Below, in pieces: positions 12,681 to 56,346 of a DNA stretch of 64,000 bases; position 1 is the first letter of the stretch, and the number at the start of each line of letters is the position of its first letter. Below the pieces are notes generated by a model. It searched no databases, was not told the DNA's origin, and saw only the letters and a list, made by a program, of their open reading frames with translations. Position numbers and translations under genes: made by a program. Source of the stretch: Nitrosopumilaceae archaeon (GTDB taxonomy: Archaea > Thermoproteota > Nitrososphaeria > Nitrososphaerales > Nitrosopumilaceae); contig JBQTHX010000014.1 in the NCBI GenBank assembly GCA_052389415.1, positions 31,862-95,861 on the forward strand, read 5' to 3'.

Positions 12681-15527
12681 TTATCCAACTTCTATTGATA
12701 TATAGTGTAATTCTGGTATATTTTCTATAATCACAATAGAACCAAAGTTAATCGTATTGTCCTTCTCCCAAACAATTACTCTATCACTTCTTGGTTTTAC
12801 AAAATTCTCTACAAAGCTTGAAATTAGTTTTTTCGTCTCTTCTAGATCAGATTCTTGGAAGAAGGAAATTTTACCTTCTTCAAATGATAATGGAATTTGT
12901 ACTGATGTAGGACTAATAATTTCGAGATTTTGTTCTTCAAATATTGATTTTAATGTAGATATACGTGAATCTCTATCAAGTTCTACGTATCCTCCTTCAG
13001 GTGGTTTAACTCCAGAAAGTTTTGAGAGATATGCTTCAAATGCTTGTTGAGGAGTATTTCCCATTCCAACATAATAATCACCATCAAAAGCAGCTCCTAC
13101 AGCTGCTATTGTTCCTAGTTGAGTAACAACTCCTCCCGAACCAGCAGTATACACTGGAATAAAATAGACATCATGATCACCAATTCTATACAGAATGTTG
13201 TCTCCGATTCGAGGATTTCTAAGTAACGTCTTTAGTTGAGCAAAATCAGGATCTCTGTCCAATGCTTCATTAACAGCCGAAGGACCTAACAGTACGGTTT
13301 CAGAATCAAGCGGTACTTCATAAAATTGTAGTTTCCCCAAGTTTTTCAGATCATTTTCTACTACCATGAAACCTGCTAGGTTTCGCCCTTCTGAGCCGCT
13401 TAACTCAAGAGAAAGTAATCCAACAAATTCACTCGTATCAAATCCTGGAGGTTTTGCTTGTATGTAATATGCACTCTGTCCTTTTGGAACTTCATAGAAT
13501 TCCTTTGCTTGTATAAATGTAGAAATGTCTTTAACATGATATATGTTGTACATCTGAACCTTCCAGTTGAACAATTCCTCAGGATATCGTATTTGTTTTT
13601 CAAGCCACTCAGGAATTTCAATAAACTTATCTTTGTATTGATTTACAAACATATCCGTGAAAAAATCATCTCCTGTTTTTATCAGAGAGATGTTACCATT
13701 ATAGACATCAACTAATGCATATCCTACTAGCCTGAGATATGGATTGCCAACAGTCCACGGTATGTTATGTGTATCAAATCCCACTATCAAAGGAATCAAC
13801 CAATATGTTTTCTCGCCATCTGTGACTGGTAGAGCATCAACTTCTCTACCAAAGAGATCATATTGAAAATAAGGATAAAGTGTTTGCATTCTTTCATGAA
13901 TATCTCTGAATCGCATTATGTGTATTGGCTCTGTTGGATAAGAAAGCAAAAAGTTTGGTTCAAAGATCTGGCTTAACGGGGGTACAACATCTAATCCGCC
14001 TTCCCCATTATATCTAGCGTTATTAAGTTCATCAGTTTGGTCACCTCTATTTGTTGGATAAGCAGACCATGTATCTTGAAAAAGACCACCTTCCCCATAA
14101 TATATTGATCTTTGTTTAAAGATTCTACTACTATCAATTATTGTACCGTTACTTGCTTCAAGTGTAAGAAATCCGTTAGGAACGTGCGTATAAACAAGAT
14201 GTTCATTATACCATCTATTTTCTGCACTTACTGATGAGGGAAGAATAGGTTTCATTGATGCTGTCCAATATAGATTGTCATTAAATCTTAGAATATCGTT
14301 ATCTTCAAAATCAACATATGGTATTAGACCAATTTCTGGTTTTAGTTTTGCAAATGCAGCATCCCAATCCCAGACTCTTACGTTATCAAGAGATTCCTTG
14401 TTTTGTAATATGTAATTTTTTATGTTGCTTGGCGGAACAGATTCTAGTTTTACGTTATGTGTACTGCTCTGTATTTGATCAAGTTGACCAACATATTGGT
14501 TTATTCCAATCTGTTGGGCTTTGTATGGACCAAGATATTCAATTTTTCTTGCATCAGCAATACTGTGATTGACAGCTATTATAGAACCTGCAACTACACC
14601 AATAGCAAGAATTGTTAAGACACGTATGTAGATATCTCTCTTTGAGGGTTGGATAATTACTCTTGAACGATATTTGTCTACGAAATAAAATGCGATCAGG
14701 CTTATTCCTGCTGCAAGTGTTCCACCAATTGCATATCTTGTGTTGTAATCAATCTGGTCTGTGAAGAACATGTTAATGCCAGCCCACAATATACCGATCC
14801 CTATTATTCCTTCAATGGTTGAAATGTAGTCAAGGAATCTTGGTTTTCCTTTTGAAGCGTCGTGCAAGTAGTTAGTTACCACTTTAATTATAGAATGTAA
14901 TCCAAGATACAATACTAATCGGATACCAATTGCAGCAAGGATAGGTGGAACTAAAATGGTTAGCGTTGGGATCATTGGAACGATTAGATTTGTGGCGTAG
15001 GTTGAATCTGTAGGAGGTGTAGTAAACGGAAGTGAAAATAATCCCCAGATACTTTCAACACCCAGATCATTTCCATCTAACAAATATTGTATTGCAAAAC
15101 CAAACATCAGATTGCTAAAAAGTGCTCCAAAGAGTAGCACCTTAGTTATTTGCCAGATTACAAAATTAGGGATGCTTAGTTTGTACTCTTGAAAATTTGG
15201 TATATTTGCAGATATAGAATTACTGTCTCCTTTTTTTAAGAAGTTTATTGCTGTGTGAATCGCATACCACGCTATCGAGGATCGATTTTTAATGTTTACC
15301 CTAATCAATGTGATCGAGGCTAATATCAGTGAGGAGAGGATGGAAAAGTACAGAGGTTTTGTGAAGAGGTCGTCAAACTCATTTACATTCATAAATAACC
15401 AAACTGCCTGGTTACCGACTACACCAAAGATTACTATGGCAATGATCGCAGCAAGTCCTAAGCGTACATACCTTCCAGCATCAGGCGATTGTGGACTATC
15501 TTCAGTAGATGAGCTATACAAAATCAC
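12681..15527 (-). CDS. UPF0182 family membrane protein
   Basis: N-terminal TM bundle, NVRVWD, WYNEHLVYTH, IYYGE, IRYPEELF. Confidence 0.85.
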   Translation of the reverse strand: MILYSSSTEDSPQSPDAGRYVRLGLAAIIAIVIFGVVGNQAVWLFMNVNEFDDLFTKPLYFSILSSLILASITLIRVNIKNRSSIAWYAIHTAINFLKKGDSNSISANIPNFQEYKLSIPNFVIWQITKVLLFGALFSNLMFGFAIQYLLDGNDLGVESIWGLFSLPFTTPPTDSTYATNLIVPMIPTLTILVPPILAAIGIRLVLYLGLHSIIKVVTNYLHDASKGKPRFLDYISTIEGIIGIGILWAGINMFFTDQIDYNTRYAIGGTLAAGISLIAFYFVDKYRSRVIIQPSKRDIYIRVLTILAIGVVAGSIIAVNHSIADARKIEYLGPYKAQQIGINQYVGQLDQIQSSTHNVKLESVPPSNIKNYILQNKESLDNVRVWDWDAAFAKLKPEIGLIPYVDFEDNDILRFNDNLYWTASMKPILPSSVSAENRWYNEHLVYTHVPNGFLTLEASNGTIIDSSRIFKQRSIYYGEGGLFQDTWSAYPTNRGDQTDELNNARYNGEGGLDVVPPLSQIFEPNFLLSYPTEPIHIMRFRDIHERMQTLYPYFQYDLFGREVDALPVTDGEKTYWLIPLIVGFDTHNIPWTVGNPYLRLVGYALVDVYNGNISLIKTGDDFFTDMFVNQYKDKFIEIPEWLEKQIRYPEELFNWKVQMYNIYHVKDISTFIQAKEFYEVPKGQSAYYIQAKPPGFDTSEFVGLLSLELSGSEGRNLAGFMVVENDLKNLGKLQFYEVPLDSETVLLGPSAVNEALDRDPDFAQLKTLLRNPRIGDNILYRIGDHDVYFIPVYTAGSGGVVTQLGTIAAVGAAFDGDYYVGMGNTPQQAFEAYLSKLSGVKPPEGGYVELDRDSRISTLKSIFEEQNLEIISPTSVQIPLSFEEGKISFFQESDLEETKKLISSFVENFVKPRSDRVIVWEKDNTINFGSIVIIENIPELHYISIEVG

Positions 15528-15604
15528 GCTACCTTCATCTGTGTCAAATTAATGTCTTACCAAAAGTCCGTATACAATTTAAGGTCAAAAGAACAAAAGG
15601 TATC

Positions 15605-16618
15605 ATGATACAGTTGGGTATTAGGGATTTGGTGAAGTATCCCTTTCTTGCTGAGACAGGAGAATATCTGCGTGATAAGGGCTTTAATTTAGAGCAGCTT
15701 GGACATCCAGATTGGAAGCCACTTGTAGAAAAAGCATATGGAAGAATCATGGTAGCCACAACAGGACAGATCTACGGTTCAGTGGCTGAAGACTTTGAAA
15801 ATATGGATTCCGAAATTCTTTCTTTTGTAATTGCAGTAATTCTTTTAAAATCAGCTGGTATACCAACCTTAATCAAGAGATTTTCTCTTTCAGAAGCAAG
15901 AAGAGCTGAAAGATATTTACAGCGAGATCTTCAGAAAAAAAATGAAGCCGCATTAGAATTACCATTAAAAATAATGCATGATCTCTTTTCTGTAAAGATA
16001 GTAAGAGAAAGAGATGATTTTGTAATAAGTGTATCAGATTATCTTAAACACGCAATTCATTTTCATGAAAAAGAATGGAAGCTTATTAACAGAAGAGTGA
16101 AAAATGGATCTGTGTTTTTGACAGCACGTGAAACGGTTAGACTCATACGAAAAGAATTAGATGGATACATAAATTCAAAAATTCAGGTAGCTAACATTCC
16201 ATATATTCCTGATACCTTCAAAGAGCGTACAAATGATTTATCCTTGCTTGCAAGAAATTTTTCAGAATACGTTACAATTTCTTCTGATTATCCACCGTGC
16301 ATCAAACATGCAATCGATGTTCTTGAAAAAGGAGAGAATTTGCCACATTCTGGTAGGTTTATGCTTGCTACCTTTCTATTTTCAAAAGGTCAAACGACGG
16401 AACAGATTGCTCCCTTATTTAAGAATGCTCCTGATTATAACGAAAGAATAACTAGATATCAGCTTGAACATATTGCCGGATCTTCTGGGAAAGGAACAAG
16501 ATATTCTTGTCCATCATGTGACAAACTTAAAAGTGAAAATCTTTGTTTTGAAATACCAGAATGTAACGGGATAATAAATCCTGGTCAATTTGGAACAAAG
16601 AGGACTACAAATGCTTGA
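15605..16618 (+). CDS. priL: DNA primase large subunit
   Basis: KYPF N-terminus, PPCI, NLPHSGRF, YSCPSC...C...C Fe-S ligands; start chosen at MIQLG. Confidence 0.93.
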   Translation: MIQLGIRDLVKYPFLAETGEYLRDKGFNLEQLGHPDWKPLVEKAYGRIMVATTGQIYGSVAEDFENMDSEILSFVIAVILLKSAGIPTLIKRFSLSEARRAERYLQRDLQKKNEAALELPLKIMHDLFSVKIVRERDDFVISVSDYLKHAIHFHEKEWKLINRRVKNGSVFLTARETVRLIRKELDGYINSKIQVANIPYIPDTFKERTNDLSLLARNFSEYVTISSDYPPCIKHAIDVLEKGENLPHSGRFMLATFLFSKGQTTEQIAPLFKNAPDYNERITRYQLEHIAGSSGKGTRYSCPSCDKLKSENLCFEIPECNGIINPGQFGTKRTTNA

Positions 16619-17732
16619 AAAAAATCTGAATCTATTAAATAATGCCTTCAAAGAATATTATTTCAAGAATTTCGAACTTGTAGAAATCCCTACAAGAATC
16701 TCGGAACGAGAATTTGGTTACCAAAAATTCAACGAGGGAATGATAAGACATCTGTCCATAAAAGATGTGAAAGAATTACATTTGTTATTAATGACTAAAG
16801 CTCCCTCTGACATATATTGTTCAAATGCATATTACTCCTTTCCTAATCTGTCCATGTCAGAAAAGGATTGGAAAGGAGCAGATCTAATTTTTGATATTGA
16901 CGCAAAAGATCTAAATCTTGATTGTAGAACAAGTCATACTTTTTACAGATGTACATCTTGTCAAAGCATCGTAGGAACAGGAAATAATTGTGTCATATGC
17001 AAATCTACCAAACTTGAAACTATATCATTAGCTTGTAAAAATTGTGTAACTGAATCCAAGAAGGAAGTGATGAAACTTCTTGAAATATTAATCGAAGATT
17101 TCGGAATCAAAAAAGAGGAGATTAAAATCTACTTTTCTGGAAACGAAGGATTTCATATATATGTAGTAAATTTGGACTATCAAACACTTGGCTCAAGAGA
17201 AAGAGCCGATCTTGCTGATTATATTATGTTTAATGGAATGTTGCCAGAGACCCTTGGTGTAAGCAAACAAACTAATTCTAAATCCACACTTCCAGATATT
17301 GATGAGGGGGGTTGGAGGGGAAGAATTGCAAAAGAACTGTTTGGTTCAAAGTTCAAGCGTACAAAGAGTATGCATGAAATCCAATCTGGTGGATATTTTG
17401 TATTTCAGGCAAAATTGCTAGATTGGAAATCAAAAATTGGAGTAAGTATAGATTCAAAAGTTACAATGGACATTCATAGAATTTTTAGATTAGGTGGTAC
17501 TATAAACAGCAAGAGTGGTCTCTCAAAAATAGTGTGTAATGATTTGAAAAACTTTGATCCATTTTCTGATGCATGTCTTATTGATGACGAAAAAGTTGAG
17601 ATTATCGCAAATTGTCCAATTTCATTTAAACTAAAAAATAAAAAATATGGTCCATATGGAAAAGAAAAGATTACTGTTCCAAAACATGTTGCAGTTTATT
17701 TAATATGCAAAGGCTGTGCAGATATTTGTTAA
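16611..17732 (+). CDS. priS: DNA primase small subunit
   Basis: REFG, LIFDIDAKD, FSGNEGFH, DIHRIFR; Cys-rich insertion. Confidence 0.95.
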   Translation: MLEKNLNLLNNAFKEYYFKNFELVEIPTRISEREFGYQKFNEGMIRHLSIKDVKELHLLLMTKAPSDIYCSNAYYSFPNLSMSEKDWKGADLIFDIDAKDLNLDCRTSHTFYRCTSCQSIVGTGNNCVICKSTKLETISLACKNCVTESKKEVMKLLEILIEDFGIKKEEIKIYFSGNEGFHIYVVNLDYQTLGSRERADLADYIMFNGMLPETLGVSKQTNSKSTLPDIDEGGWRGRIAKELFGSKFKRTKSMHEIQSGGYFVFQAKLLDWKSKIGVSIDSKVTMDIHRIFRLGGTINSKSGLSKIVCNDLKNFDPFSDACLIDDEKVEIIANCPISFKLKNKKYGPYGKEKITVPKHVAVYLICKGCADIC

Positions 17733-17806
17733 AATTTCAATATTACTAATTGTTAGAGATTATCTAACACAAGGAGTTTAAATTATACTCGCTAATTACC
17801 CACATT

Positions 17807-18655
17807 ATGAAGGTTGGAATTCATGTATCTATTTCTGGTTCGATAAGCAATGCGGTGGATAATGCCTTAACTTTGGGCTGTAGTGCATTTCAAATTTTTA
17901 CAAGAAATCCACGGGGTTGGAAAGCAAAACAACTTTTAACTGATGACATAAATAATTTTAGAGAAAAATTAGCTTCTAGTAAAATTGAAAGATCTGCCAC
18001 AGTTGCTCACATGCCATATTTACCGAATCTTTCATCTCCAGATCATGATCCTGACTCAAAATCGTTGAATTCACTATTAGAAGAGTTGAAACGGTGTAGT
18101 CAGTTAGGAATTCCTTATCTTGTGACACATCTTGGAAGCCATAAGGCTGCTGGTGACCAAAAAGGAATTGAGAAATTAGTTGAGAATTTTACAAAGGCTG
18201 TAAGAAACTCCCCAAGTGATGTTATGATACTTTTGGAGAATACTGCTGGACAAAAAAATAGTGTGGGTTCAGATTTTGAACAGCTTGCTTCCATTTTTTT
18301 CCAACTAAAACCATCAAAACGATTTGGTATATGCCTGGATACATGTCATGCCTTTGCAGCAGGATATGATCTACGAACCGAAAAATCAGCTAAATCAACC
18401 TTAGAACAATTTGATAAATTCGTTGGAATAGATCACCTAAAGATTATCCATCTTAATGATTCACAAGGAGAAATTGGTTGCCATAAAGACAGGCATGAGC
18501 ACATTGGTCTTGGAAAAATCGGAGAAACTGGTCTCAGATATGTCGTAAGATTTGCCAATTCTAAGAAAATCCCAGTCATTTTGGAAACACCTATTGATGA
18601 TAGATGTGATGCCTTTGGAAACATAAAAAAAGTAAAGGAATTCGCTGAACTGTAG
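17807..18655 (+). CDS. nfo: endonuclease IV
   Basis: GIHVSISG, HMPYLPNL, ENTAGQ, DTCHAF, HLNDS, DRHEHIG, ILETP. Confidence 0.95.
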   Translation: MKVGIHVSISGSISNAVDNALTLGCSAFQIFTRNPRGWKAKQLLTDDINNFREKLASSKIERSATVAHMPYLPNLSSPDHDPDSKSLNSLLEELKRCSQLGIPYLVTHLGSHKAAGDQKGIEKLVENFTKAVRNSPSDVMILLENTAGQKNSVGSDFEQLASIFFQLKPSKRFGICLDTCHAFAAGYDLRTEKSAKSTLEQFDKFVGIDHLKIIHLNDSQGEIGCHKDRHEHIGLGKIGETGLRYVVRFANSKKIPVILETPIDDRCDAFGNIKKVKEFAEL

Positions 18656-18672
18656 TGGTTGGTTGATATGTT

Positions 18673-20136
18673 GTGAACTATGAACAAATAATGCAGCTTG
18701 CTCTAGAACGAGGATTTTATTTTCCAAGTTGTGAGATATATGCAGATGCACAAGCTGGTTTTTGGGAATATGGACCAGTCGGGGTAAGTTTTAAAAATAA
18801 ATTCATAGAACTTTGGAGACGTGAATTCATTAGAAGAGATAGAATGATGGAGATCGATGGTTCTCAGATAATGTCAGAATCAGTTTTTAAGGCGTCTGGA
18901 CATCTAGCAAGCTTTGCGGACCCAATTGTGGTATGTGAAAAATGTAAATCCATTTTTAGAGCTGACAGATTGATCACAGAAGCTACCTCCATCGCAGTTC
19001 CTGAAAGTTCAGATCTTTCCGAGTTTGATAGACTAATCACAGAGCACACTCTAGTTTGCCCAAAATGTAGCGGCAAATTCAATAAAGCAAACAAATTCAA
19101 TATGATGTTCAGAGTAGGAATAGGTCCCGAGTCAGAATCATCTTATCTGAGACCAGAAACATGTCAATCTATCTTTGTAGATTTTCCAAGACTCTATAAA
19201 ACAATGAGAGGAAAGCTGCCTGTTGGAATAGCACAAATTGGCAAGAGTTTTAGAAACGAGATTTCTCCACGCCAAAGTCTTTTGAGACTAAGAGAATTCT
19301 ATCAAGCAGAAATTGAAGTTTTTTGTAATCCAAACAAGCTAAATAATCTTGAAAAATTTTCTGAGATTGAAAACACACAGATCAGAATAATGACAGATGA
19401 TACTATCAAATACATAACATGCAAGGAAGCATTAGATTTAGGGATTTTACCTAACAAACTTGTTGCGTATTATTTGGGATTACTTACAGAGTTTTATCAA
19501 AAAACTGGTATTGATATCAAAAAAAGTAGATTTAGAAAACTGGGAGATAAAGAAAAAGCGTTTTATGCATCAGTAGCTTTTGATTTTGAGGTAGAAACTA
19601 CCACAGGATGGCTGGAACTTGTTGCGTGCAATTATAGATCAGATTATGATCTGAAGAGTCATGCCAATACGAGTAATGAAAAATTTGAAGTGATGGATGA
19701 AGATACTAAGGTTCTTCCACATGTATTCGAACTTTCTATGGGTATTGATAGAAGTCTGTATACGATATTAGAACATAGTTTACGCGATGATAAAGAAAAT
19801 GATAGAGTTGTTCTTTCATTAAAACCGTATCTAGCTCCAATCCATGTAGGTGTTCTTTCACTTATGAAGAAAGATGGTCTAGCAGAAAAAACAGAAGAAA
19901 TTTTTTCAAAGATCAAGAGATCATTTGATGTATTCTTGGATCATTCTGGTGCTATAGGAAGACGGTATAGACGACTCGATGAGGTTGGATCACCCTTTGC
20001 AATTACTGTAGATCACCAAACTCTTCAAGATGATACTGTCACAGTTCGAGAACGTGATTCAATGAATCAAGAAAGGATAAAGATTTCAGAAATCCATTCA
20101 TATATTTCAGGCAAGGTTGCTTTTCCCTTGACATAA
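18673..20136 (+). CDS. glyS: glycine--tRNA ligase (alpha2 type)
   Basis: LRPETCQ, QIGKSFRNEISPR, LREF.QAEIE, IGRRYRR.DE. Confidence 0.97.
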   Translation: MNYEQIMQLALERGFYFPSCEIYADAQAGFWEYGPVGVSFKNKFIELWRREFIRRDRMMEIDGSQIMSESVFKASGHLASFADPIVVCEKCKSIFRADRLITEATSIAVPESSDLSEFDRLITEHTLVCPKCSGKFNKANKFNMMFRVGIGPESESSYLRPETCQSIFVDFPRLYKTMRGKLPVGIAQIGKSFRNEISPRQSLLRLREFYQAEIEVFCNPNKLNNLEKFSEIENTQIRIMTDDTIKYITCKEALDLGILPNKLVAYYLGLLTEFYQKTGIDIKKSRFRKLGDKEKAFYASVAFDFEVETTTGWLELVACNYRSDYDLKSHANTSNEKFEVMDEDTKVLPHVFELSMGIDRSLYTILEHSLRDDKENDRVVLSLKPYLAPIHVGVLSLMKKDGLAEKTEEIFSKIKRSFDVFLDHSGAIGRRYRRLDEVGSPFAITVDHQTLQDDTVTVRERDSMNQERIKISEIHSYISGKVAFPLT

Positions 20137-20222
20137 TGCATTTACCAAGTAATAATTAGCAGCAATTTTTTAAAAGATATAAAAAGTGGACGTAATCGCC
20201 AGTCTTCCCATTGCGAGTTCCC

Positions 20223-20864
20223 CTACTCGTATGTTGATTGTGACGATACTCCTGAGGGTGATGGAACTGATGGGAATCTATCGCCAATCTGTTGTTCTGC
20301 AACTGCAGATGCTTCTTGTAGAATCTTATCTGTTTCTTCACTTGATACATCAGAATCTACGCTAAAGTCTCCACCTGCTAACGAGTCCATCATTAATCCG
20401 TTGAGTGTTTGTGTCATAGAGTTAAGTTCTGCATCTGCTTCAGGCATAAATCTTCCAAGTGAAGATTTTAATCCCTTCATAGTTGACATTGCAGGTGCGA
20501 TAGCTACCATTGCATCTCCAAGATCATGTATGGTAGTCAGGCGCAATTGTACTTGCTCCAATGCCATTCTTGCATTGCCTAACATCTTTGTAACCTTCCT
20601 AATTTCTGCTAACTCGTTGGACAAGACTCTGCTCGTACTAGCATCGTGTTGTTGCATTGCGGCTACGATTCGTTTGAAAAGCTGTGTATCTCGTTCTCTT
20701 AGCTTTCCTAACATAGAATCCATCTTCGATATCTGACCCTGTAATTTGTTTACGGCTCCCTCAATTCTAGGTTTGAGGGCTCCCTGTGGTTTTACAGCGT
20801 CATGTATTCTTTCGTTTAAACCTCTGGTCTCTTGTCGAGTCCAGGTTTTATCGAAGCCTGTCAT
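20223..20864 (-). CDS. cdvB: CdvB/ESCRT-III (Snf7) cell division protein
   Basis: Coiled coil with ELAEIRK, LEQVQLRLTTIHDLGD, KILQEASAVAE and a Pro/Ser-rich tail. Confidence 0.9.
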   Translation of the reverse strand: MTGFDKTWTRQETRGLNERIHDAVKPQGALKPRIEGAVNKLQGQISKMDSMLGKLRERDTQLFKRIVAAMQQHDASTSRVLSNELAEIRKVTKMLGNARMALEQVQLRLTTIHDLGDAMVAIAPAMSTMKGLKSSLGRFMPEADAELNSMTQTLNGLMMDSLAGGDFSVDSDVSSEETDKILQEASAVAEQQIGDRFPSVPSPSGVSSQSTYE

Positions 20865-20920
20865 GCGAGGTAGTTGAAAATTTACTTCTTAATGTCGGGT
20901 GTATATTATCATCAACATTA

Positions 20921-20946
20921 GACTAAATTTAGCTAACAAAATGTAA
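20921..20946. promoter_or_regulatory. conserved cdvB upstream box, copy 1
   Basis: gactaaatttagctaacaaaatgtaa, 57 bp from the cdvB ATG; 23/26 identical to 52468-52493. Confidence 0.7.
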
Positions 20947-20971
20947 ATCAGGCACGTATTTAGCTATTAAC

Positions 20972-21730
20972 ATGCCAAGAATAGTAGTTTTTGATTCTGG
21001 TTTTGGTTCTCTTTCAATAATAAGGTCAATACAAAAAAAGATAAAATTAGAAATCATCTATTTTGCGGATCAAAAGAATTTTCCGTATGGTACAAAATCG
21101 GTTTTCGATCTAAGAAAAATTATTTTATCGACTATAGATAAATTAGAAAAAATATTTGAGCCTGACTTGATAGTAGTTGGATCAAACACTCCTTCGTTAT
21201 TATTAAAAGACATTATCAAACCAAGAATCATTGGCGTTGTTCCACCAATAAAGAAAGCAGTTAACAAGACAAAAACAAATAACATAGCGCTACTTGTAAC
21301 TAAATCTGTTGCAGAAAGTCATTCATTTAATAATTATTTAAAAAAAAATATACCAGATAGAATCAAAGTAATCGTAATAAATGCGTCATCCCTTGTAGAT
21401 CTTGTTGAATCTGGTAAATTTATTCATGCTAAAAATTTTTGCAGAAGAATAATAGAAAAATCATTACTAGAACCAATAATGACTAATAATATTGATGTTG
21501 TAACACTATCCAGCACACATATGCCATTTCTTCTGCCTATTTTACAACAGATATTTCCGAATGTTACTTTTCTAGATCCAGCATGTACAATAGCAGATCA
21601 AGTTGTGAAGAAATTAAAGAAAAAAAATTCAAAAAGAGGCTCATTAAAAATTTTTACTTCTGGAAATGTGAAACTTTTTCAAAAACAATTACTACAGCTG
21701 GGAATAAAAAATACGGTAAAATCATTATAA
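20972..21730 (+). CDS. glutamate racemase-like protein with both catalytic Cys replaced by Ser
   Basis: FDSG.G.LS, D..NFPYG.KS; GSNT and SSTH where MurI has ACNT and GCTH. Confidence 0.8.
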   Translation: MPRIVVFDSGFGSLSIIRSIQKKIKLEIIYFADQKNFPYGTKSVFDLRKIILSTIDKLEKIFEPDLIVVGSNTPSLLLKDIIKPRIIGVVPPIKKAVNKTKTNNIALLVTKSVAESHSFNNYLKKNIPDRIKVIVINASSLVDLVESGKFIHAKNFCRRIIEKSLLEPIMTNNIDVVTLSSTHMPFLLPILQQIFPNVTFLDPACTIADQVVKKLKKKNSKRGSLKIFTSGNVKLFQKQLLQLGIKNTVKSL

Positions 21731-23207: not shown

Positions 23208-23293
23208 TAGAAGCGATTCAAGTTGTACCTAATTAAAAGTTAGATTTTAAAGAAATACTTTACAATAGTGACAAGCACGAAAATAATGATATG

Positions 23294-24334: not shown

Positions 24335-24430
24335 GTAAATTTACAAAGTGACTCATAGGAAACCATGCTTAAAATCTTTGTTTCCCACAACAACAGTAAC
24401 AGTATAATTTTGGAGCGATAATGCGTTATC

Positions 24431-45894: not shown

Positions 45895-46182
45895 TTAATA
45901 CCTTAGATTCATTGCTTGGACGAGAGTCTGGAACTTTTGAAATTCTTGAAAGAATTTGATGCCTTTTTCAGTTATCACAAAGAGTCGGTTTCTGTTGTCT
46001 TTCATTGAATCTACTAATCCAGCTTCAATTAGTTTTTGGCACTTGTCAAGCACTGCATAATGTGACAAGTTTGCTCTTCTAGATATAGCAGATACAATCA
46101 CCCCTTGTGTACCACCGTCCATGGTTACACCCAAGATATCGGCAATTATGCCCATTTCTGATCTGTATTGTTGTTTTGACAT
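45895..46182 (-). CDS. small winged helix-turn-helix regulator
   Basis: YRS..GII.DIL, ANLSH, L.EAGL, ITEKG. Confidence 0.88.
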   Translation of the reverse strand: MSKQQYRSEMGIIADILGVTMDGGTQGVIVSAISRRANLSHYAVLDKCQKLIEAGLVDSMKDNRNRLFVITEKGIKFFQEFQKFQTLVQAMNLRY

Positions 46183-51779: not shown

Positions 51780-52411
51780 ATGTAACGCGCTGAAGTTGAT
51801 TGACCCGAAGGCATTGAAGGTAATTTGTCGTTGACTGCCGCCTCTGCAACTGCTGCCGCTTCTGACAGTATCTTTTCTGATTCCTCGTTTGTTGATTCTG
51901 AATCTATTCCAAAGTCACCATTGTGGAAGGTGTCTGTCATAAGACCACTCAACATCTCTGTCATACCACTTAGTTCCTGGTCTGCCTCTGGCATGAATCT
52001 TATAAGTGATGATCTTAGACTTTTCATTAGTCCTATTGTTGGAACTATAGTTACTACAGTATCTCCAAGATCGTGGAATGTTGTTAATCTAAGTTCGATT
52101 TGTTCTAGAGCTATTCTTGCATTGCTTAATAGTTTGGTAACTTTACGAACTTCAGCTAATTCTTTTGATAATACTCTGCTTGTAGTGGTGTCATGTTGTT
52201 GAGTTGCTGTAACAATTCGTTTGAAAAGTTTTTCGTCCTTTTGTTTTAGTTTTGTAACCATTCCGTCTAGTTTAGAAATCTGAGTCTGCAGTTTTTTTAC
52301 TGCCGTCTCTAATCGTGGCTTTAATGGACCTTTGGGATGTAATGCATCGTTTAGTTTTTCACCAAAACTTGTTGTTTGAGGTTTGGTCCAGCTTTTTACA
52401 AAACCAGTCAT
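51776..52411 (-). CDS. cdvB: CdvB/ESCRT-III (Snf7) cell division protein, second paralog
   Basis: ELAEVRK, LEQIELRLTTFHDLGD, KILSEAAAVAE; paralog of 20223-20864. Confidence 0.9.
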   Translation of the reverse strand: MTGFVKSWTKPQTTSFGEKLNDALHPKGPLKPRLETAVKKLQTQISKLDGMVTKLKQKDEKLFKRIVTATQQHDTTTSRVLSKELAEVRKVTKLLSNARIALEQIELRLTTFHDLGDTVVTIVPTIGLMKSLRSSLIRFMPEADQELSGMTEMLSGLMTDTFHNGDFGIDSESTNEESEKILSEAAAVAEAAVNDKLPSMPSGQSTSARYI

Positions 52412-52467
52412 GATAAGCAGTTCAAAAATTAGTTATTAATTCAAGGTGTGAAACGAGGTTTACTGTG

Positions 52468-52493
52468 GACTAAATTAAGCTAACTAAATGCAA
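52468..52493. promoter_or_regulatory. conserved cdvB upstream box, copy 2
   Basis: gactaaattaagctaactaaatgcaa, 57 bp from the cdvB ATG; 23/26 identical to 20921-20946. Confidence 0.7.
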
Positions 52494-52596
52494 GGTTATG
52501 ATTTCGAGCAATAAACCCTTCAAAATTATAAATCTCGAAAAATTTTTTTATAACCTAAATTGGATATATCCTTACAATCGATCCTCAGACCAGAGA

Positions 52597-52704
52597 TTAG
52601 TGCGTCAGTTGTATGCTATTTCTCTGCGGATGGATTTTCTTTATGTGAATTTCCAGTGCAGTTGTTGATTGCTGAAATTCACAGCAAAGTGGACATTTTT
52701 CCAT
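52597..52704 (-). CDS. 35-aa C2H2 zinc-finger microprotein
   Basis: Manual translation MEKCPLCCEFQQSTTALEIHIKKIHPQRNSIQLTH: C-x2-C-x12-H-x4-H with Leu at H-3. Confidence 0.7.
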   Translation of the reverse strand: MEKCPLCCEFQQSTTALEIHIKKIHPQRNSIQLTH

Positions 52705-53072
52705 TTTATTTAATGCCTGTGAATTGGAAAAATTGTATTTAAATATTTGGTTTAACTTGTTTGAGGAAATATTTTGTTGAAAATTAATTAAAATAAATTG
52801 AAAGTTGTTGGTATCTGAGAAATTAGTTTCGTCTCATTGTAAAAAAACTCTCAGAAAAATGAGAAATGATATTGGTAAATAGATCTCTAAAATAAACCAA
52901 AAATTGCCATTTTTGGGAAATAAGGTTTTGAGATAATTGAAATATTCATAATAAAATTAGTTAACAATTACAAATTTTTAAATATTTTGCATGGAATTAC
53001 TTAGAATCTAGAATAAACAGTAATAGTTAAATCTTTTTATTATCCCGGACCGAAACTTTTATTAGATATAAG

Positions 53073-53990
53073 ATGACGCGCGAAAATTTTGGTTCTGGTG
53101 GCGGACGCTGTCCACGTTGTGGAAAAGGTCCCATGGTAACTGACAGTACTACCGGAGAAATGTTTTGTGGAAATTGCGGTTTCGTACTAACTGAAAGAGT
53201 TGAGGAATCAGGACCAGAATGGAGATCGTTTTCAAAAGAAGAACATGAGGATCGAAGTAGAACTGGAACTCCCACTTCACTTGCGATGCATGACATGGGT
53301 CTTGCAACCATTATCGGTCCAGCAGATAAGGATGCATCTGGAAAACCACTTTCTGCTTCTATGAAAAGTACTATTGAACGTCTAAGAACTTGGGATAGTC
53401 GAAGTCAAGTTCATGAACCAGTAGACAGAAACTTTAGACAAGCCTTTAGTGAGCTCGACAGACTAAAAGACAAGCTAGCTCTTTCTGATGCAGTTATAGA
53501 AAAAACTGCATATGTTTACAGAAAGGCATTGGATAAAGGCCTAGTAAGGGGAAGATCAATTCCTGGACTAGTTGCGGCTGCATTGTATGCTGCATGCAGA
53601 GATACGGAAACACCAAGAACTTTGACTGATGTAGCAAATGGAATTAATATCAAGAGAAAAGATGTTGCAAGATGCTACAGATTGCTTCTAAGAGAACTTG
53701 ATCTAAAGATGCCAGTTGTAGATCCAATAAAATGTGTAGCAAGAATTGCAAGCAAAGCTGGATTGAGTGAAAAAACAAAAAGAAAAGCACTGCTAATTCT
53801 AAAGGATGCTGCTGAAATTGAAATTTCTGCAGGAAAAGATCCTATGGGACTTGCAGCCGCTGCATTGTATCTTTCTTGTGTGATGAATGGAGAGAACAAG
53901 ACACAAAAGGACGTTGCTCAGGCAGCAGGAGTTACCGAAGTGACTATACGAAATAGATACAAAGGGTTAAAGGAATCCCTAAAACTATAA
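53073..53990 (+). CDS. tfb: transcription initiation factor IIB
   Basis: CPRCG...CGNCG ribbon, GPEWRSF, GLVRGRS, GKDPMG, GVTEVTIRNRYK. Confidence 0.97.
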   Translation: MTRENFGSGGGRCPRCGKGPMVTDSTTGEMFCGNCGFVLTERVEESGPEWRSFSKEEHEDRSRTGTPTSLAMHDMGLATIIGPADKDASGKPLSASMKSTIERLRTWDSRSQVHEPVDRNFRQAFSELDRLKDKLALSDAVIEKTAYVYRKALDKGLVRGRSIPGLVAAALYAACRDTETPRTLTDVANGINIKRKDVARCYRLLLRELDLKMPVVDPIKCVARIASKAGLSEKTKRKALLILKDAAEIEISAGKDPMGLAAAALYLSCVMNGENKTQKDVAQAAGVTEVTIRNRYKGLKESLKL

Positions 53991-55442: not shown

Positions 55443-56189
55443 TCATGTAAGAAATTCTTCTGCTCCCAGTCCTTCTGGCGTAATTTTTATCCATCTGTTT
55501 CTTCCTATTTGTTCAATCTCTACAAACTTCCAATCAAGCAAGAGAGGCTGGATTATGTTTTTATCAAGACTAGCAAATCTCGCTTGCTGGAAATTCTCTT
55601 CTCTTGCATTTACTATTAGGAGTCCATTTTCATAAGCGAGCTCTGCCATCTCTTTTTTAGTTATCTTGCCGCCATGTTCTTTAATTATTTTTAGTGCTTG
55701 AACAAGCACAGACTTTGGAGTATGAATTTCGTATGCAGGTAGCTGAACAAGTGTTTTTAGACCAGAAGATAATTGTGCACCTTTAACAGTTGCATAGCTT
55801 TCAGGCTCTGCATAGTACGGTGTTAGTTTGTTTTTTCCTTTAAACATCATACAGGCCATCATGCATGCAATTGCCTGAATTTTTGATCCTGAAGAAACGT
55901 TTACAAAAATGTCGTTCTCCTTTTCTTTTTGTACTATCTCTTTGACTGATTTTAAGATCTTAAACGGATCAAACCTGTCTGAATAGATTATCTGAACATC
56001 GATCTTTTCTTTTTTTAATTCTGTCCTGATCTTTTCCATGTACCCAAGAGCCTTGTCCTTTGAAGGGTCGTCATGCATCAAGAGCCAGACCTTGTCTGCC
56101 TTCAACTTCTTGGCAGAAAGTACAATCCTGTCTATCTCAAAGCCCACAGGAGCAATGTGTACACGCAGATTTGCCAGACTAGTCATCAT
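55443..56189 (-). CDS. DUF6293/HFX_2341-family regulator (CARF-like Rossmann domain plus wHTH)
   Basis: RVHIAPVGFE.DR, VNVSSGSK, YY..PE.Y, C-terminal wHTH ending ITPEG; start at MMTS. Confidence 0.8.
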   Translation of the reverse strand: MMTSLANLRVHIAPVGFEIDRIVLSAKKLKADKVWLLMHDDPSKDKALGYMEKIRTELKKEKIDVQIIYSDRFDPFKILKSVKEIVQKEKENDIFVNVSSGSKIQAIACMMACMMFKGKNKLTPYYAEPESYATVKGAQLSSGLKTLVQLPAYEIHTPKSVLVQALKIIKEHGGKITKKEMAELAYENGLLIVNAREENFQQARFASLDKNIIQPLLLDWKFVEIEQIGRNRWIKITPEGLGAEEFLT

Positions 56190-56346
56190 GGTATGTATAG
56201 TTTGCATACTAATCTCATGATATATAATAATTCTCTGATTCTATACTAAAACATGAAAGCGGTTTGCAAGTTGGAAAAGGAAATAGAGATTCATGTATTT
56301 CCTGCAGTCAAATCAATCTTTGAACTAAAAGAATAATTTGAAAATT

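Follow-up and report, generated by a model that had tools for sequence, protein, structure and literature searches.

The stretch of DNA analysed here, 64,000 nucleotides of contig JBQTHX010000014.1 (assembly GCA_052389415.1) and called the window below, comes from a Nitrosotalea-like member of the Nitrosopumilaceae with a G+C content of 35%, the CdvB1 proteins of the nearest loci being 99% identical. It carries two genes, cdvB1 and cdvB2, which lie 31.5 kb apart and encode ESCRT-III proteins of the CdvB1/B2 type, and the promoters of both contain a short conserved element, Box A, at the same distance from the start codon (the names Box A, Box B, and Box C are labels coined in the present analysis). 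Ammonia-oxidising archaea divide by means of the Cdv/ESCRT-III system and pass through an ordered cell cycle. The control of the cell cycle in TACK archaea is called unclear in a 2024 review (PMC7617429), and no cis-element or regulator of the thaumarchaeal cdv genes is described in the literature found, nor does any relevant paper contain the motif strings.

The cdvB genes and their orthologues

Both window proteins are ESCRT-III members of the CdvB1/B2 type as judged by sequence matches. The NCBIfam model NF041005 recognises cdvB1 with an E value of 3e-48 (164 bits) and cdvB2 with 4e-46 (157 bits), both under its curated cut-off of 350, which is taken to be tuned to Sulfolobales. In addition, CdvB1 matches the "Cell division protein B2" of PDB entry 9s97 (E 7e-46), and against Pfam Snf7, which has a gathering threshold of 27.3, cdvB2 scores above it (29.3 bits) and cdvB1 below it (18.8 bits). 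The two proteins share 59% amino acid identity; their third codon positions are only 42% identical, so that neutral sites between the two genes are saturated.

The orthologue set is composed of the best 80 of 283 confirmed relatives from one genome scan, all 80 of them cdvB1 orthologues, and covers Nitrosotalea, Nitrosopumilus, Nitrosarchaeum, Nitrosotenuis, and other Nitrosopumilaceae, a single family of the Nitrososphaerota. These orthologues are 81-99% identical to cdvB1 and 56-62% identical to cdvB2 at the amino acid level (81-86% and 56-60%, respectively, for those of other genera), and the duplication is therefore older than the radiation of the Nitrosopumilaceae. In Nitrosopumilus maritimus, Nmar_0029 and Nmar_0061 were described with approximately 50% mutual identity and approximately 30% identity to the polymer-forming CdvB Nmar_0816 (Ng et al., PMC3684127); the window pair would be equivalent to Nmar_0029 and Nmar_0061, which fits its own 59%. 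No cdvA, cdvC, or third cdvB paralogue was found in the window, where 60 further open reading frames (ORFs) were scanned with Pfam, or in the 80 loci.

A box at a fixed distance from both start codons

The element had first been proposed from the window alone as a 26-bp box shared by the two cdvB promoters, and the coordinates and strings given for it in this original prediction are all correct: each box starts 57 nt away from its ATG (20921 = 20864+57; 52468 = 52411+57), and the two agree at 23 of 26 positions over -82..-57 in an ungapped, ATG-anchored comparison. The "ttaat" at offset 25 and the "ggtgt" at offset 34 align without gaps between the two promoters as it had described, and the stretch said to have diverged between ggtgt and the box is identical at only 5 of 18 positions (-56..-39). 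Nearer to the genes, -38..-1 is identical at 26 of 38 positions, and farther out, at -200..-83, identity is 29%. The agreement is exceptional for the window, in which 65 ATG-anchored upstream regions were compared in all 2080 pairs by the identity of 26-mers at the same offset: the cdvB pair reaches 23/26, and the other 2079 pairs reach 17/26 at most.

Positions were counted over 78 sequences, namely the two window genes and the 76 loci for which 90 nt or more of upstream DNA was available; four shorter loci were excluded. The core TTGTKAGCTWAATTTAG starts at exactly -75 in 76/76 cdvB1 loci that have enough upstream sequence, and the best match to TTGTTAGCTAAATTTA lies at -75 in all 78 sequences with zero to three mismatches, so that all readable orthologous promoters have the box at this one offset. 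Similarly, ATTAAGA stands at -29 throughout the 78 sequences, with 76 exact matches, and not a single indel separates position -76 from the ATG in the aligned upstream regions.

Substitution was measured on a tree of 76 unique sequences as Fitch changes per column, of which codon positions 1, 2, and 3 have means of 1.44, 0.64, and 8.73. Box A (-76..-57) has a mean of 2.25 changes per column, approximately a quarter of the synonymous rate; the Box B region (-52..-34) has a mean of 2.95, and Box C (-30..-23) a mean of 1.12, with no change at all in ATTAAG (-29..-24). The five ACACC columns changed 0, 0, 2, 1, and 5 times. The spacers, with 7.8-10.7 changes per column, evolve at the neutral rate yet are free of indels, and Box A is thus far more conserved than these spacers and the third codon positions. 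The same rates trim the 26 bp originally proposed: the segment -76..-57 is constrained among the orthologues, but the distal -82..-77 is not (11.4 changes per column), and the constrained part is 16-20 bp only.

The cdvB1 promoter has 32 columns per 100 that are at least 95% identical, against 0-8 in five neighbouring control promoters. The cdvB2 promoter follows the same pattern, carrying the majority base of the cdvB1 orthologues in 29 of 36 constrained columns vs 22 of 44 other columns (Fisher p 0.005); by block, it agrees in 14/17 columns of Box A, 5/5 of ACACC, 6/8 of Box C, and 4/14 of the left part of Box B. Within Box A, the 10-bp palindrome CTAAATTTAG is perfect in 59/79 sequences, the 12-mer GCTAAATTTAGC is perfect in 38/79, and the palindromic core named in the original prediction, TTAGCTAA, in 30/79; beside the palindrome stands a conserved, non-symmetric 5' arm. 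In one orthologue, that of Nitrosotenuis chungbukensis MY2 (complete genome; locus L060, 9991..10003), an extra base after codon 3 puts the cdvB1 ATG out of frame, through either a real frameshift or a mistake in the assembly; the boxes of its promoter are intact and keep their usual offsets once the ATG is shifted by one base, as was done for the alignment.

A reading without function, in which the resemblance arose by chance, is left over from the duplication, or was produced by gene conversion between the two genes, has next to no probability. The genes are indeed paralogous and their promoters of common ancestry, but flanks with 29% identity and third codon positions with 42% are saturated, no other promoter pair exceeds 17/26, the box has changed at only a quarter of the synonymous rate in at least four genera, and conversion tracts of 20 bp only that recur in every lineage are not credible. 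Substitution rates, constant position, and the promoter-pair comparison together refute it. The coordinates of the elements and of the genes around them are collected in Table 1.

Table 1. Features of the two cdvB loci in the window (offsets are counted from the ATG of the gene named).
Feature	Coordinates	Strand	Basis or remark
cdvB1, ESCRT-III of CdvB1/B2 type, 213 aa	20223..20864	-	ORF, NF041005, PDB 9s97, 80 orthologous loci
cdvB2, ESCRT-III of CdvB1/B2 type, 211 aa	51776..52411	-	ORF, Pfam Snf7, NF041005
Box A core of cdvB1, TTGTTAGCTAAATTTAG, -75..-59	20923..20939	-	constrained block -76..-57 = 20921..20940; palindrome CTAAATTTAG
Box A core of cdvB2, TAGTTAGCTTAATTTAG, -75..-59	52470..52486	-	14/17 to the cdvB1-orthologue majority; one mismatch to GTTAGCTAAATTTAG
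Box B of cdvB1, GTTGATGATAATAT, -52..-39	20903..20916	-	kept in cdvB1 orthologues only; A/T-rich, TATA-like
ACACC of cdvB1 (the "ggtgt" of the original prediction), -38..-34	20898..20902	-	common to cdvB2
ACACC of cdvB2, -38..-34	52445..52449	-	5/5 identical to cdvB1, same offset
Box C of cdvB1, CATTAAGA, -30..-23, probable TATA box of a leaderless promoter	20887..20894	-	position of ATTAAGA; control promoters
Box C of cdvB2, AATTAATA, -30..-23, probable TATA box	52434..52441	-	offset identical to that in cdvB1; agrees with the orthologue majority at 6/8
Glutamate-racemase-like gene, head to head with cdvB1	20972..21730	+	TIGR00067, E 3e-37, 128 bits, under the cut-off of 147
ATGTAAATC, predicted TATA box of the racemase-like gene, at -31..-23 from the racemase ATG	20941..20949	+	position; family-wide TATA site
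TFB (TFIIB) gene, divergent from cdvB2	53073..53990	+	Pfam TFIIB, 1.8e-40, and Zn ribbon; context only
Conserved TATA blocks of control promoters (examples)	17777..17783, 23228..23238, 24400..24410		alignments

Specificity of the box

The scans for further copies covered 1.21 Mb of loci together with the 64-kb window, approximately 1.27 Mb in total. The degenerate 15-mer GTKAGCTWAATTTAG is present in 66/80 loci, in one copy each and always at -73..-59 of cdvB1, and occurs nowhere else in the 1.21 Mb of loci. In the window, a search allowing one mismatch returns two sites only, the cdvB1 and cdvB2 promoters, while three mismatches give 10 matches vs 3.7 expected. A position weight matrix (PWM) built on 23 distinct box sequences assigns 24.7-32.5 bits to the true boxes and 16.1 bits to the best other site in 1.27 Mb, and 13 other sites reach at least 12 bits vs 9 in shuffled DNA. 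Box A is accordingly not an element of random promoters, no other copy being present in the DNA scanned.

The ACACC pentamer is equally restricted in its position, since none of 227 other promoters carries it at -41..-35. The exact arrangement ACACC-N4-ATTAA occurs three times in the window, in the two cdvB promoters and once inside an ORF; with one mismatch allowed, 11 matches were obtained in the window vs 6.2 expected, and no further promoter emerged among them. In a phage collection, the promoter DNA gave chance matches only (E 0.7), and the CdvB1 protein gave none.

Position of the core promoter

The usual core promoter of these genomes was located in upstream regions of the window and the loci, 237 after dereplication, in which T reaches 37, 42, and 51% at -30..-28 and A 43-48% at -27..-24, G+C drops to 17-24% at -30..-24, and C is found in 30% at -1. 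In gapped alignments of the five independent neighbouring control promoters, three (AP endonuclease, corrin methylase, and NFACT) have a TATA block at -31..-21 as their sole conserved feature, and the other two show no conserved block. The TATA block of the three controls and the C at -1 are comparative evidence that most Nitrosopumilaceae mRNAs would be leaderless. In thaumarchaea, the TATA box of the amo genes was placed 23-24 nt ahead of the start codon, and leaderless transcripts were inferred (Bartossek et al., PMC3379541); the main text of a Red Sea mdRNA-seq paper contains no thaumarchaeal promoter motif or leader length (PMC5069720).

Box C lies where this family has its TATA box, with its invariant ATTAAG (-29..-24) on the TATA site of the control promoters and an atypical G inside it. 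From this position, it follows that the cdvB1 and cdvB2 transcripts are probably leaderless and that Box A would lie approximately 38 bp upstream of the core promoter. The 22 nt from Box C to the ATG, neutral yet free of indels, are what the TATA-to-start spacer of a leaderless gene predicts. The original prediction, which had placed the box upstream of a TATA-like element, is borne out in this respect, the element being at the canonical position of the Nitrosopumilaceae. A role of ggtgt (ACACC) as a B recognition element (BRE) finds no support: four neutral bases lie between it and the TATA-like element, and the 227 other promoters lack it at this position.

A role for RNA structure is unsupported, as RNAalifold predicts no pairs in -40..+30 over 30 sequences. 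A position-anchored expectation-maximisation (EM) search found motif starts peaking at -40..-38 with the TATA part at approximately -29..-24, but its PWM holds only 3.2 bits and is too weak to rank the boxes; with it, the Box C region of cdvB2 scores 5.2 bits, approximately that of the median promoter, and Box A 3.7 bits. A de novo EM search of 227 upstream regions ended in a spurious motif that reflected the orthologous redundancy left in the set, and its result was set aside.

The genes divergent from cdvB1 and cdvB2

The racemase-like gene stands head to head with cdvB1 in 69/80 loci, with an intergenic region of approximately 105 bp, and its predicted TATA box abuts Box A, so placed that the left arm of Box A falls in its BRE position. 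The distal 6 nt of the originally proposed 26 bp probably overlap this TATA box, judging from its location, and the stretch in question is not kept at a fixed offset from cdvB. Box A could on these grounds be a BRE or upstream element of the racemase-like gene, or part of a shared bidirectional promoter, and lie near cdvB merely through the compactness of the intergenic region. Such ownership is very improbable. From ATG to ATG, nine different distances of 101-110 nt were counted, and three further loci have 128, 248, and 1431 nt, so that 12 different distances (101-1431 nt) separate the two start codons and likewise the box from the racemase start, and no column is conserved when the alignment is anchored on the racemase ATG. 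In the seven informative loci in which the racemase-like gene is displaced or missing, Box A without exception remains at -75 of cdvB, and cdvB2 has the box with a 661-bp non-coding spacer in place of a racemase neighbour. Because the offset is held without the racemase-like gene, and at cdvB2 without any such neighbour, the box is assigned to cdvB, and these comparisons contradict an explanation by racemase ownership alone. A factor at Box A may still co-regulate the racemase-like gene.

A partial second Box A arm, ATTTAGCTATTAACATG, was noticed at 20958..20974, where it overlaps the racemase start codon; it matches 20927..20943, 31 bp away, at 14 of 17 positions, is missing from the closest orthologous loci, and was not used as evidence. 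Peptidoglycan is not known from these archaea.

On the other side, cdvB2 is divergent from a TFB gene whose protein scores 377 bits with NF001658 (cut-off 384), close to a standard TFIIB score. Two short ORFs, unscanned against Pfam, precede this gene, and the gene that follows it has no Pfam match. The spacer between cdvB2 and the TFB gene (52412..53072) is 661 bp long, which is unusual, A/T-rich, and non-coding; it has no Rfam match (52300..53200 searched) and no tRNA, the sole match of the tRNA scan being an unrelated tRNA-Gly. A 56-aa ORF at 52498..52668 has the position expected of a leaderless gene that Box A would drive the other way; as it has no homologue of 30-98 aa, it was rejected as a gene and is treated as non-coding. 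No copy of Box A was found before the TFB gene. A 17-nt stretch of the proximal cdvB2 promoter, made up of Box C and the following bases (52425..52441), recurs at 15 of 17 positions in the same orientation at 52953..52969, 528 bp further upstream of cdvB2 and near the TFB gene; this repeat may be due to chance in A/T-rich DNA and was not used as evidence.

Other neighbours deserve a mention. The genes for the large and small subunits of DNA primase (15509..17732, + strand) end 2.5 kb from the cdvB1 stop (17732 to 20223), and no copy of Box A is found at them. An Sso10a-like winged-helix protein (45895..46182, - strand) and a Csa3/HFX_2341-like regulator with CARF and winged-helix domains (55443..56207, - strand) are possible DNA-binding proteins within 6 kb of cdvB2, and nothing ties either to Box A.

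Proposed mechanism and competing readings

Box A is classed as a gene-specific upstream promoter element. The reading favoured here, which has about an even chance of being right, is that a sequence-specific regulator occupies it, a short way upstream of a weak core promoter, and from there controls both paralogues. The element would be a double-stranded DNA site of 16-20 bp, TTGTKAGCTWAATTTAG, fixed at -75..-59 of both CdvB1/B2-type genes, and each promoter would read, in order, Box A, Box B (in cdvB1 only), ACACC at -38..-34, four neutral bases, the TATA element at -29..-23, a spacer of 22 nt, and an ATG that is also the transcription start. The weak and atypical TATA element (ATTAAGA in one gene and ATTAATA in the other), which lacks a conserved adjoining BRE, would drive leaderless mRNAs. 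A putative regulator, probably dimeric, would bind Box A and set the output of cdvB1 and cdvB2 together, most likely by helping TBP and TFB onto the weak core promoter; its sign would in that case probably be activating, as the poverty of the core promoter suggests. The fixed spacing would represent a protein-protein register with the initiation complex, and ACACC, in both genes, and Box B, in cdvB1, may be further contacts of the same assembly. Conservation, fixed register, gene specificity, and location upstream of TATA agree with an upstream activator site, assuming a leaderless start, and the element may have a link to cell-cycle timing.

Several observations weigh against this reading. 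The leaderless status on which it depends is drawn from position statistics, neighbouring promoters, and a published inference for other genes. The layout of Box A is itself that of a BRE followed by a TATA box facing cdvB, with a conserved arm of 7-8 nt and then an A/T-only octamer, and the AC-A of ACACC lies 23 nt past this octamer, which is the local TATA-to-start distance, with C at -1 and A at +1. Conservation is asymmetric about the palindrome, the outer bases of the right arm having changed five and nine times and those of the left arm one and zero times, and a simple homodimer site therefore fits less well. The box may define a cell-division regulon, as the original prediction supposed, but within the 1.27 Mb, it occurs on two genes only, cdvB1 and cdvB2.

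These features lead to a different account in which Box A is itself a core promoter, with TTGTKAGC as an unusual BRE, TAAATTTA as the TATA box toward cdvB, a start at approximately -36, and a leader of 35 nt, either alone or in tandem with a leaderless Box C promoter; the unusual BRE might be read by a TFB paralogue. This is unlikely, though it is a serious candidate. The constrained 5' arm directly before the A/T-only octamer would account for the asymmetric conservation; from the end of the octamer at -60, a 23-nt spacer of the locally normal length leads to a start at A(-36) after the invariant C(-37); ACACC would owe its confinement to cdvB, seen against the 227 other promoters, to this start; and the A/T-rich Box B of the cdvB1 orthologues sits where a promoter-proximal A/T element would be. 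Furthermore, division genes of Sulfolobus, including cdvB1 and cdvB2, were reported to depend on TFB2 (bioRxiv 10.64898/2026.09.06.749720). The controls speak otherwise: none of the five conserves -67..-60, three conserve -31..-21, which is the site of the cdvB ATTAAG, and two conserve neither. A 35-nt leader with a neutral distal 22 nt should tolerate indels, of which the 78 sequences have none, no Shine-Dalgarno-like sequence precedes the cdvB ATG, and no conserved RNA structure is predicted. For a leaderless transcript, the octamer is not the TATA box, since it ends at -60 and not at -24. Its words are also foreign to local TATA boxes, AAATTT and ATTTAG being depleted (0.27-fold and 0.29-fold) and TAAATT enriched (4.9-fold) at -34..-21 relative to distal upstream DNA, but these 6-mer statistics are rough and the set behind them still contains related promoters and is only partly independent, a weakness that counts against the preferred reading as well.

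Conservation, specificity, and a fixed register would equally be expected of an operator or architectural site, at which a repressor or a nucleoid-associated, Lrp-like multimer occupies Box A (and Box B in cdvB1) and silences the genes outside division. In keeping with it, the starts of the A/T cores of Box A (-67) and Box B (-46) are separated by 21 bp, two helical turns that would suit cooperative binding on one face, and the short-box division regulators known from Sulfolobales, aCcr1 to aCcr3, are described as repressors (PMC9976878, PMC13199686). A site 30-45 bp upstream of TATA does not by itself block TBP or TFB, however, and the poor core TATA element without a conserved adjacent BRE suggests a need of help rather than of silencing. 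In addition, cdvB2 has no Box B (4/14), and cooperative binding to both boxes is therefore not the shared mechanism. Silencing from Box A is on balance clearly unlikely.

A long shot, finally, is that the cdvB1/B2 promoters form a dedicated class, marked by Box A, the offset ACACC, a G-containing TATA element, and a rigid register of 76 bp, that would be read by a specialised TFB or TBP paralogue; the TFB gene divergent from cdvB2 is a possible candidate for such a reader.

Comparison with known regulatory systems

Upstream activator sites are known in archaea from Ptr2 of Methanocaldococcus, TFB-RF1 of Pyrococcus, and the ARA box of Saccharolobus, which lie upstream of the BRE and TATA of weak promoters and recruit TBP or TFB. 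This mode of action is the mechanism favoured for Box A, although we know of no resemblance in sequence between Box A and the sites of these three systems.

A close counterpart is the aCcr1-box of the Sulfolobales, a 9-bp motif, A(T/G)G(A)TA(G)A(T/G)TACN, that is bound by the ribbon-helix-helix repressor aCcr1, is found at the promoters of cdvA and other division genes, and is thought to time cytokinesis (PMC9976878). Like Box A, it is described as a short box at equivalent positions of Cdv division genes throughout a taxon (PMC9976878). Box A differs in its length of 16-20 bp, in its sequence, in its position approximately 38 bp upstream of a probable TATA element, and in belonging to CdvB1/B2-type genes of the Nitrosopumilaceae; an identity of the two was accordingly rejected, as sequence, length, and position upstream of the TATA-like element all differ from the motif as printed.

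The TFB2 promoters of S. acidocaldarius offer a second comparison, as cdvB1 and cdvB2 are co-regulated there at transcription initiation, a result based on chromatin immunoprecipitation sequencing (ChIP-seq) and genetics, whereas the present case is made from sequence only (bioRxiv 10.64898/2026.09.06.749720). TFB2-dependent promoters were reported to differ from housekeeping ones by their BRE-TATA spacing, and in the cdvB promoters of the window the departure consists of an ACACC placed 4 nt from the TATA-like element together with Box A. The TFB gene adjoining cdvB2 recalls the TFB2 system, but the preprint reports no upstream box. It also links gar1 to TFB2; no gar1 stood out beside the window TFB gene, though no search for gar1 was made.

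Within the Nitrososphaerota, a literature search found a single other de novo promoter motif, the copper-limitation motif of Nitrososphaera viennensis, TTCSGSMTTTGWACYANT, which lies at -35 to -70 from start codons and resembles Box A in length and position (PMC7785015). It differs in sequence, in family, and in its association with copper-uptake genes, and was defined by co-expression, whereas Box A was defined by paralogues and orthologues.

Implications for cell division in the Nitrosopumilaceae

We know of no genetic tools for ammonia-oxidising archaea, and a 17-bp sequence held throughout a family is therefore a practical handle on their cell division. Box A may serve as a bait for its binding protein, as a genome-wide pattern for co-regulated genes, and as a marker promoter when the many TFB paralogues are assayed by in vitro transcription. 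Should the factor be a TFB paralogue, the cell-cycle control of thaumarchaea and that of Sulfolobus would be linked. If the cdvB promoters were indeed a dedicated class read by a TFB, they would be the counterpart of the division-phase transcription governed by TFB2 in Sulfolobus, and the control of the cell cycle by TFIIB paralogues would be older than the split between Nitrososphaerota and Thermoproteota.

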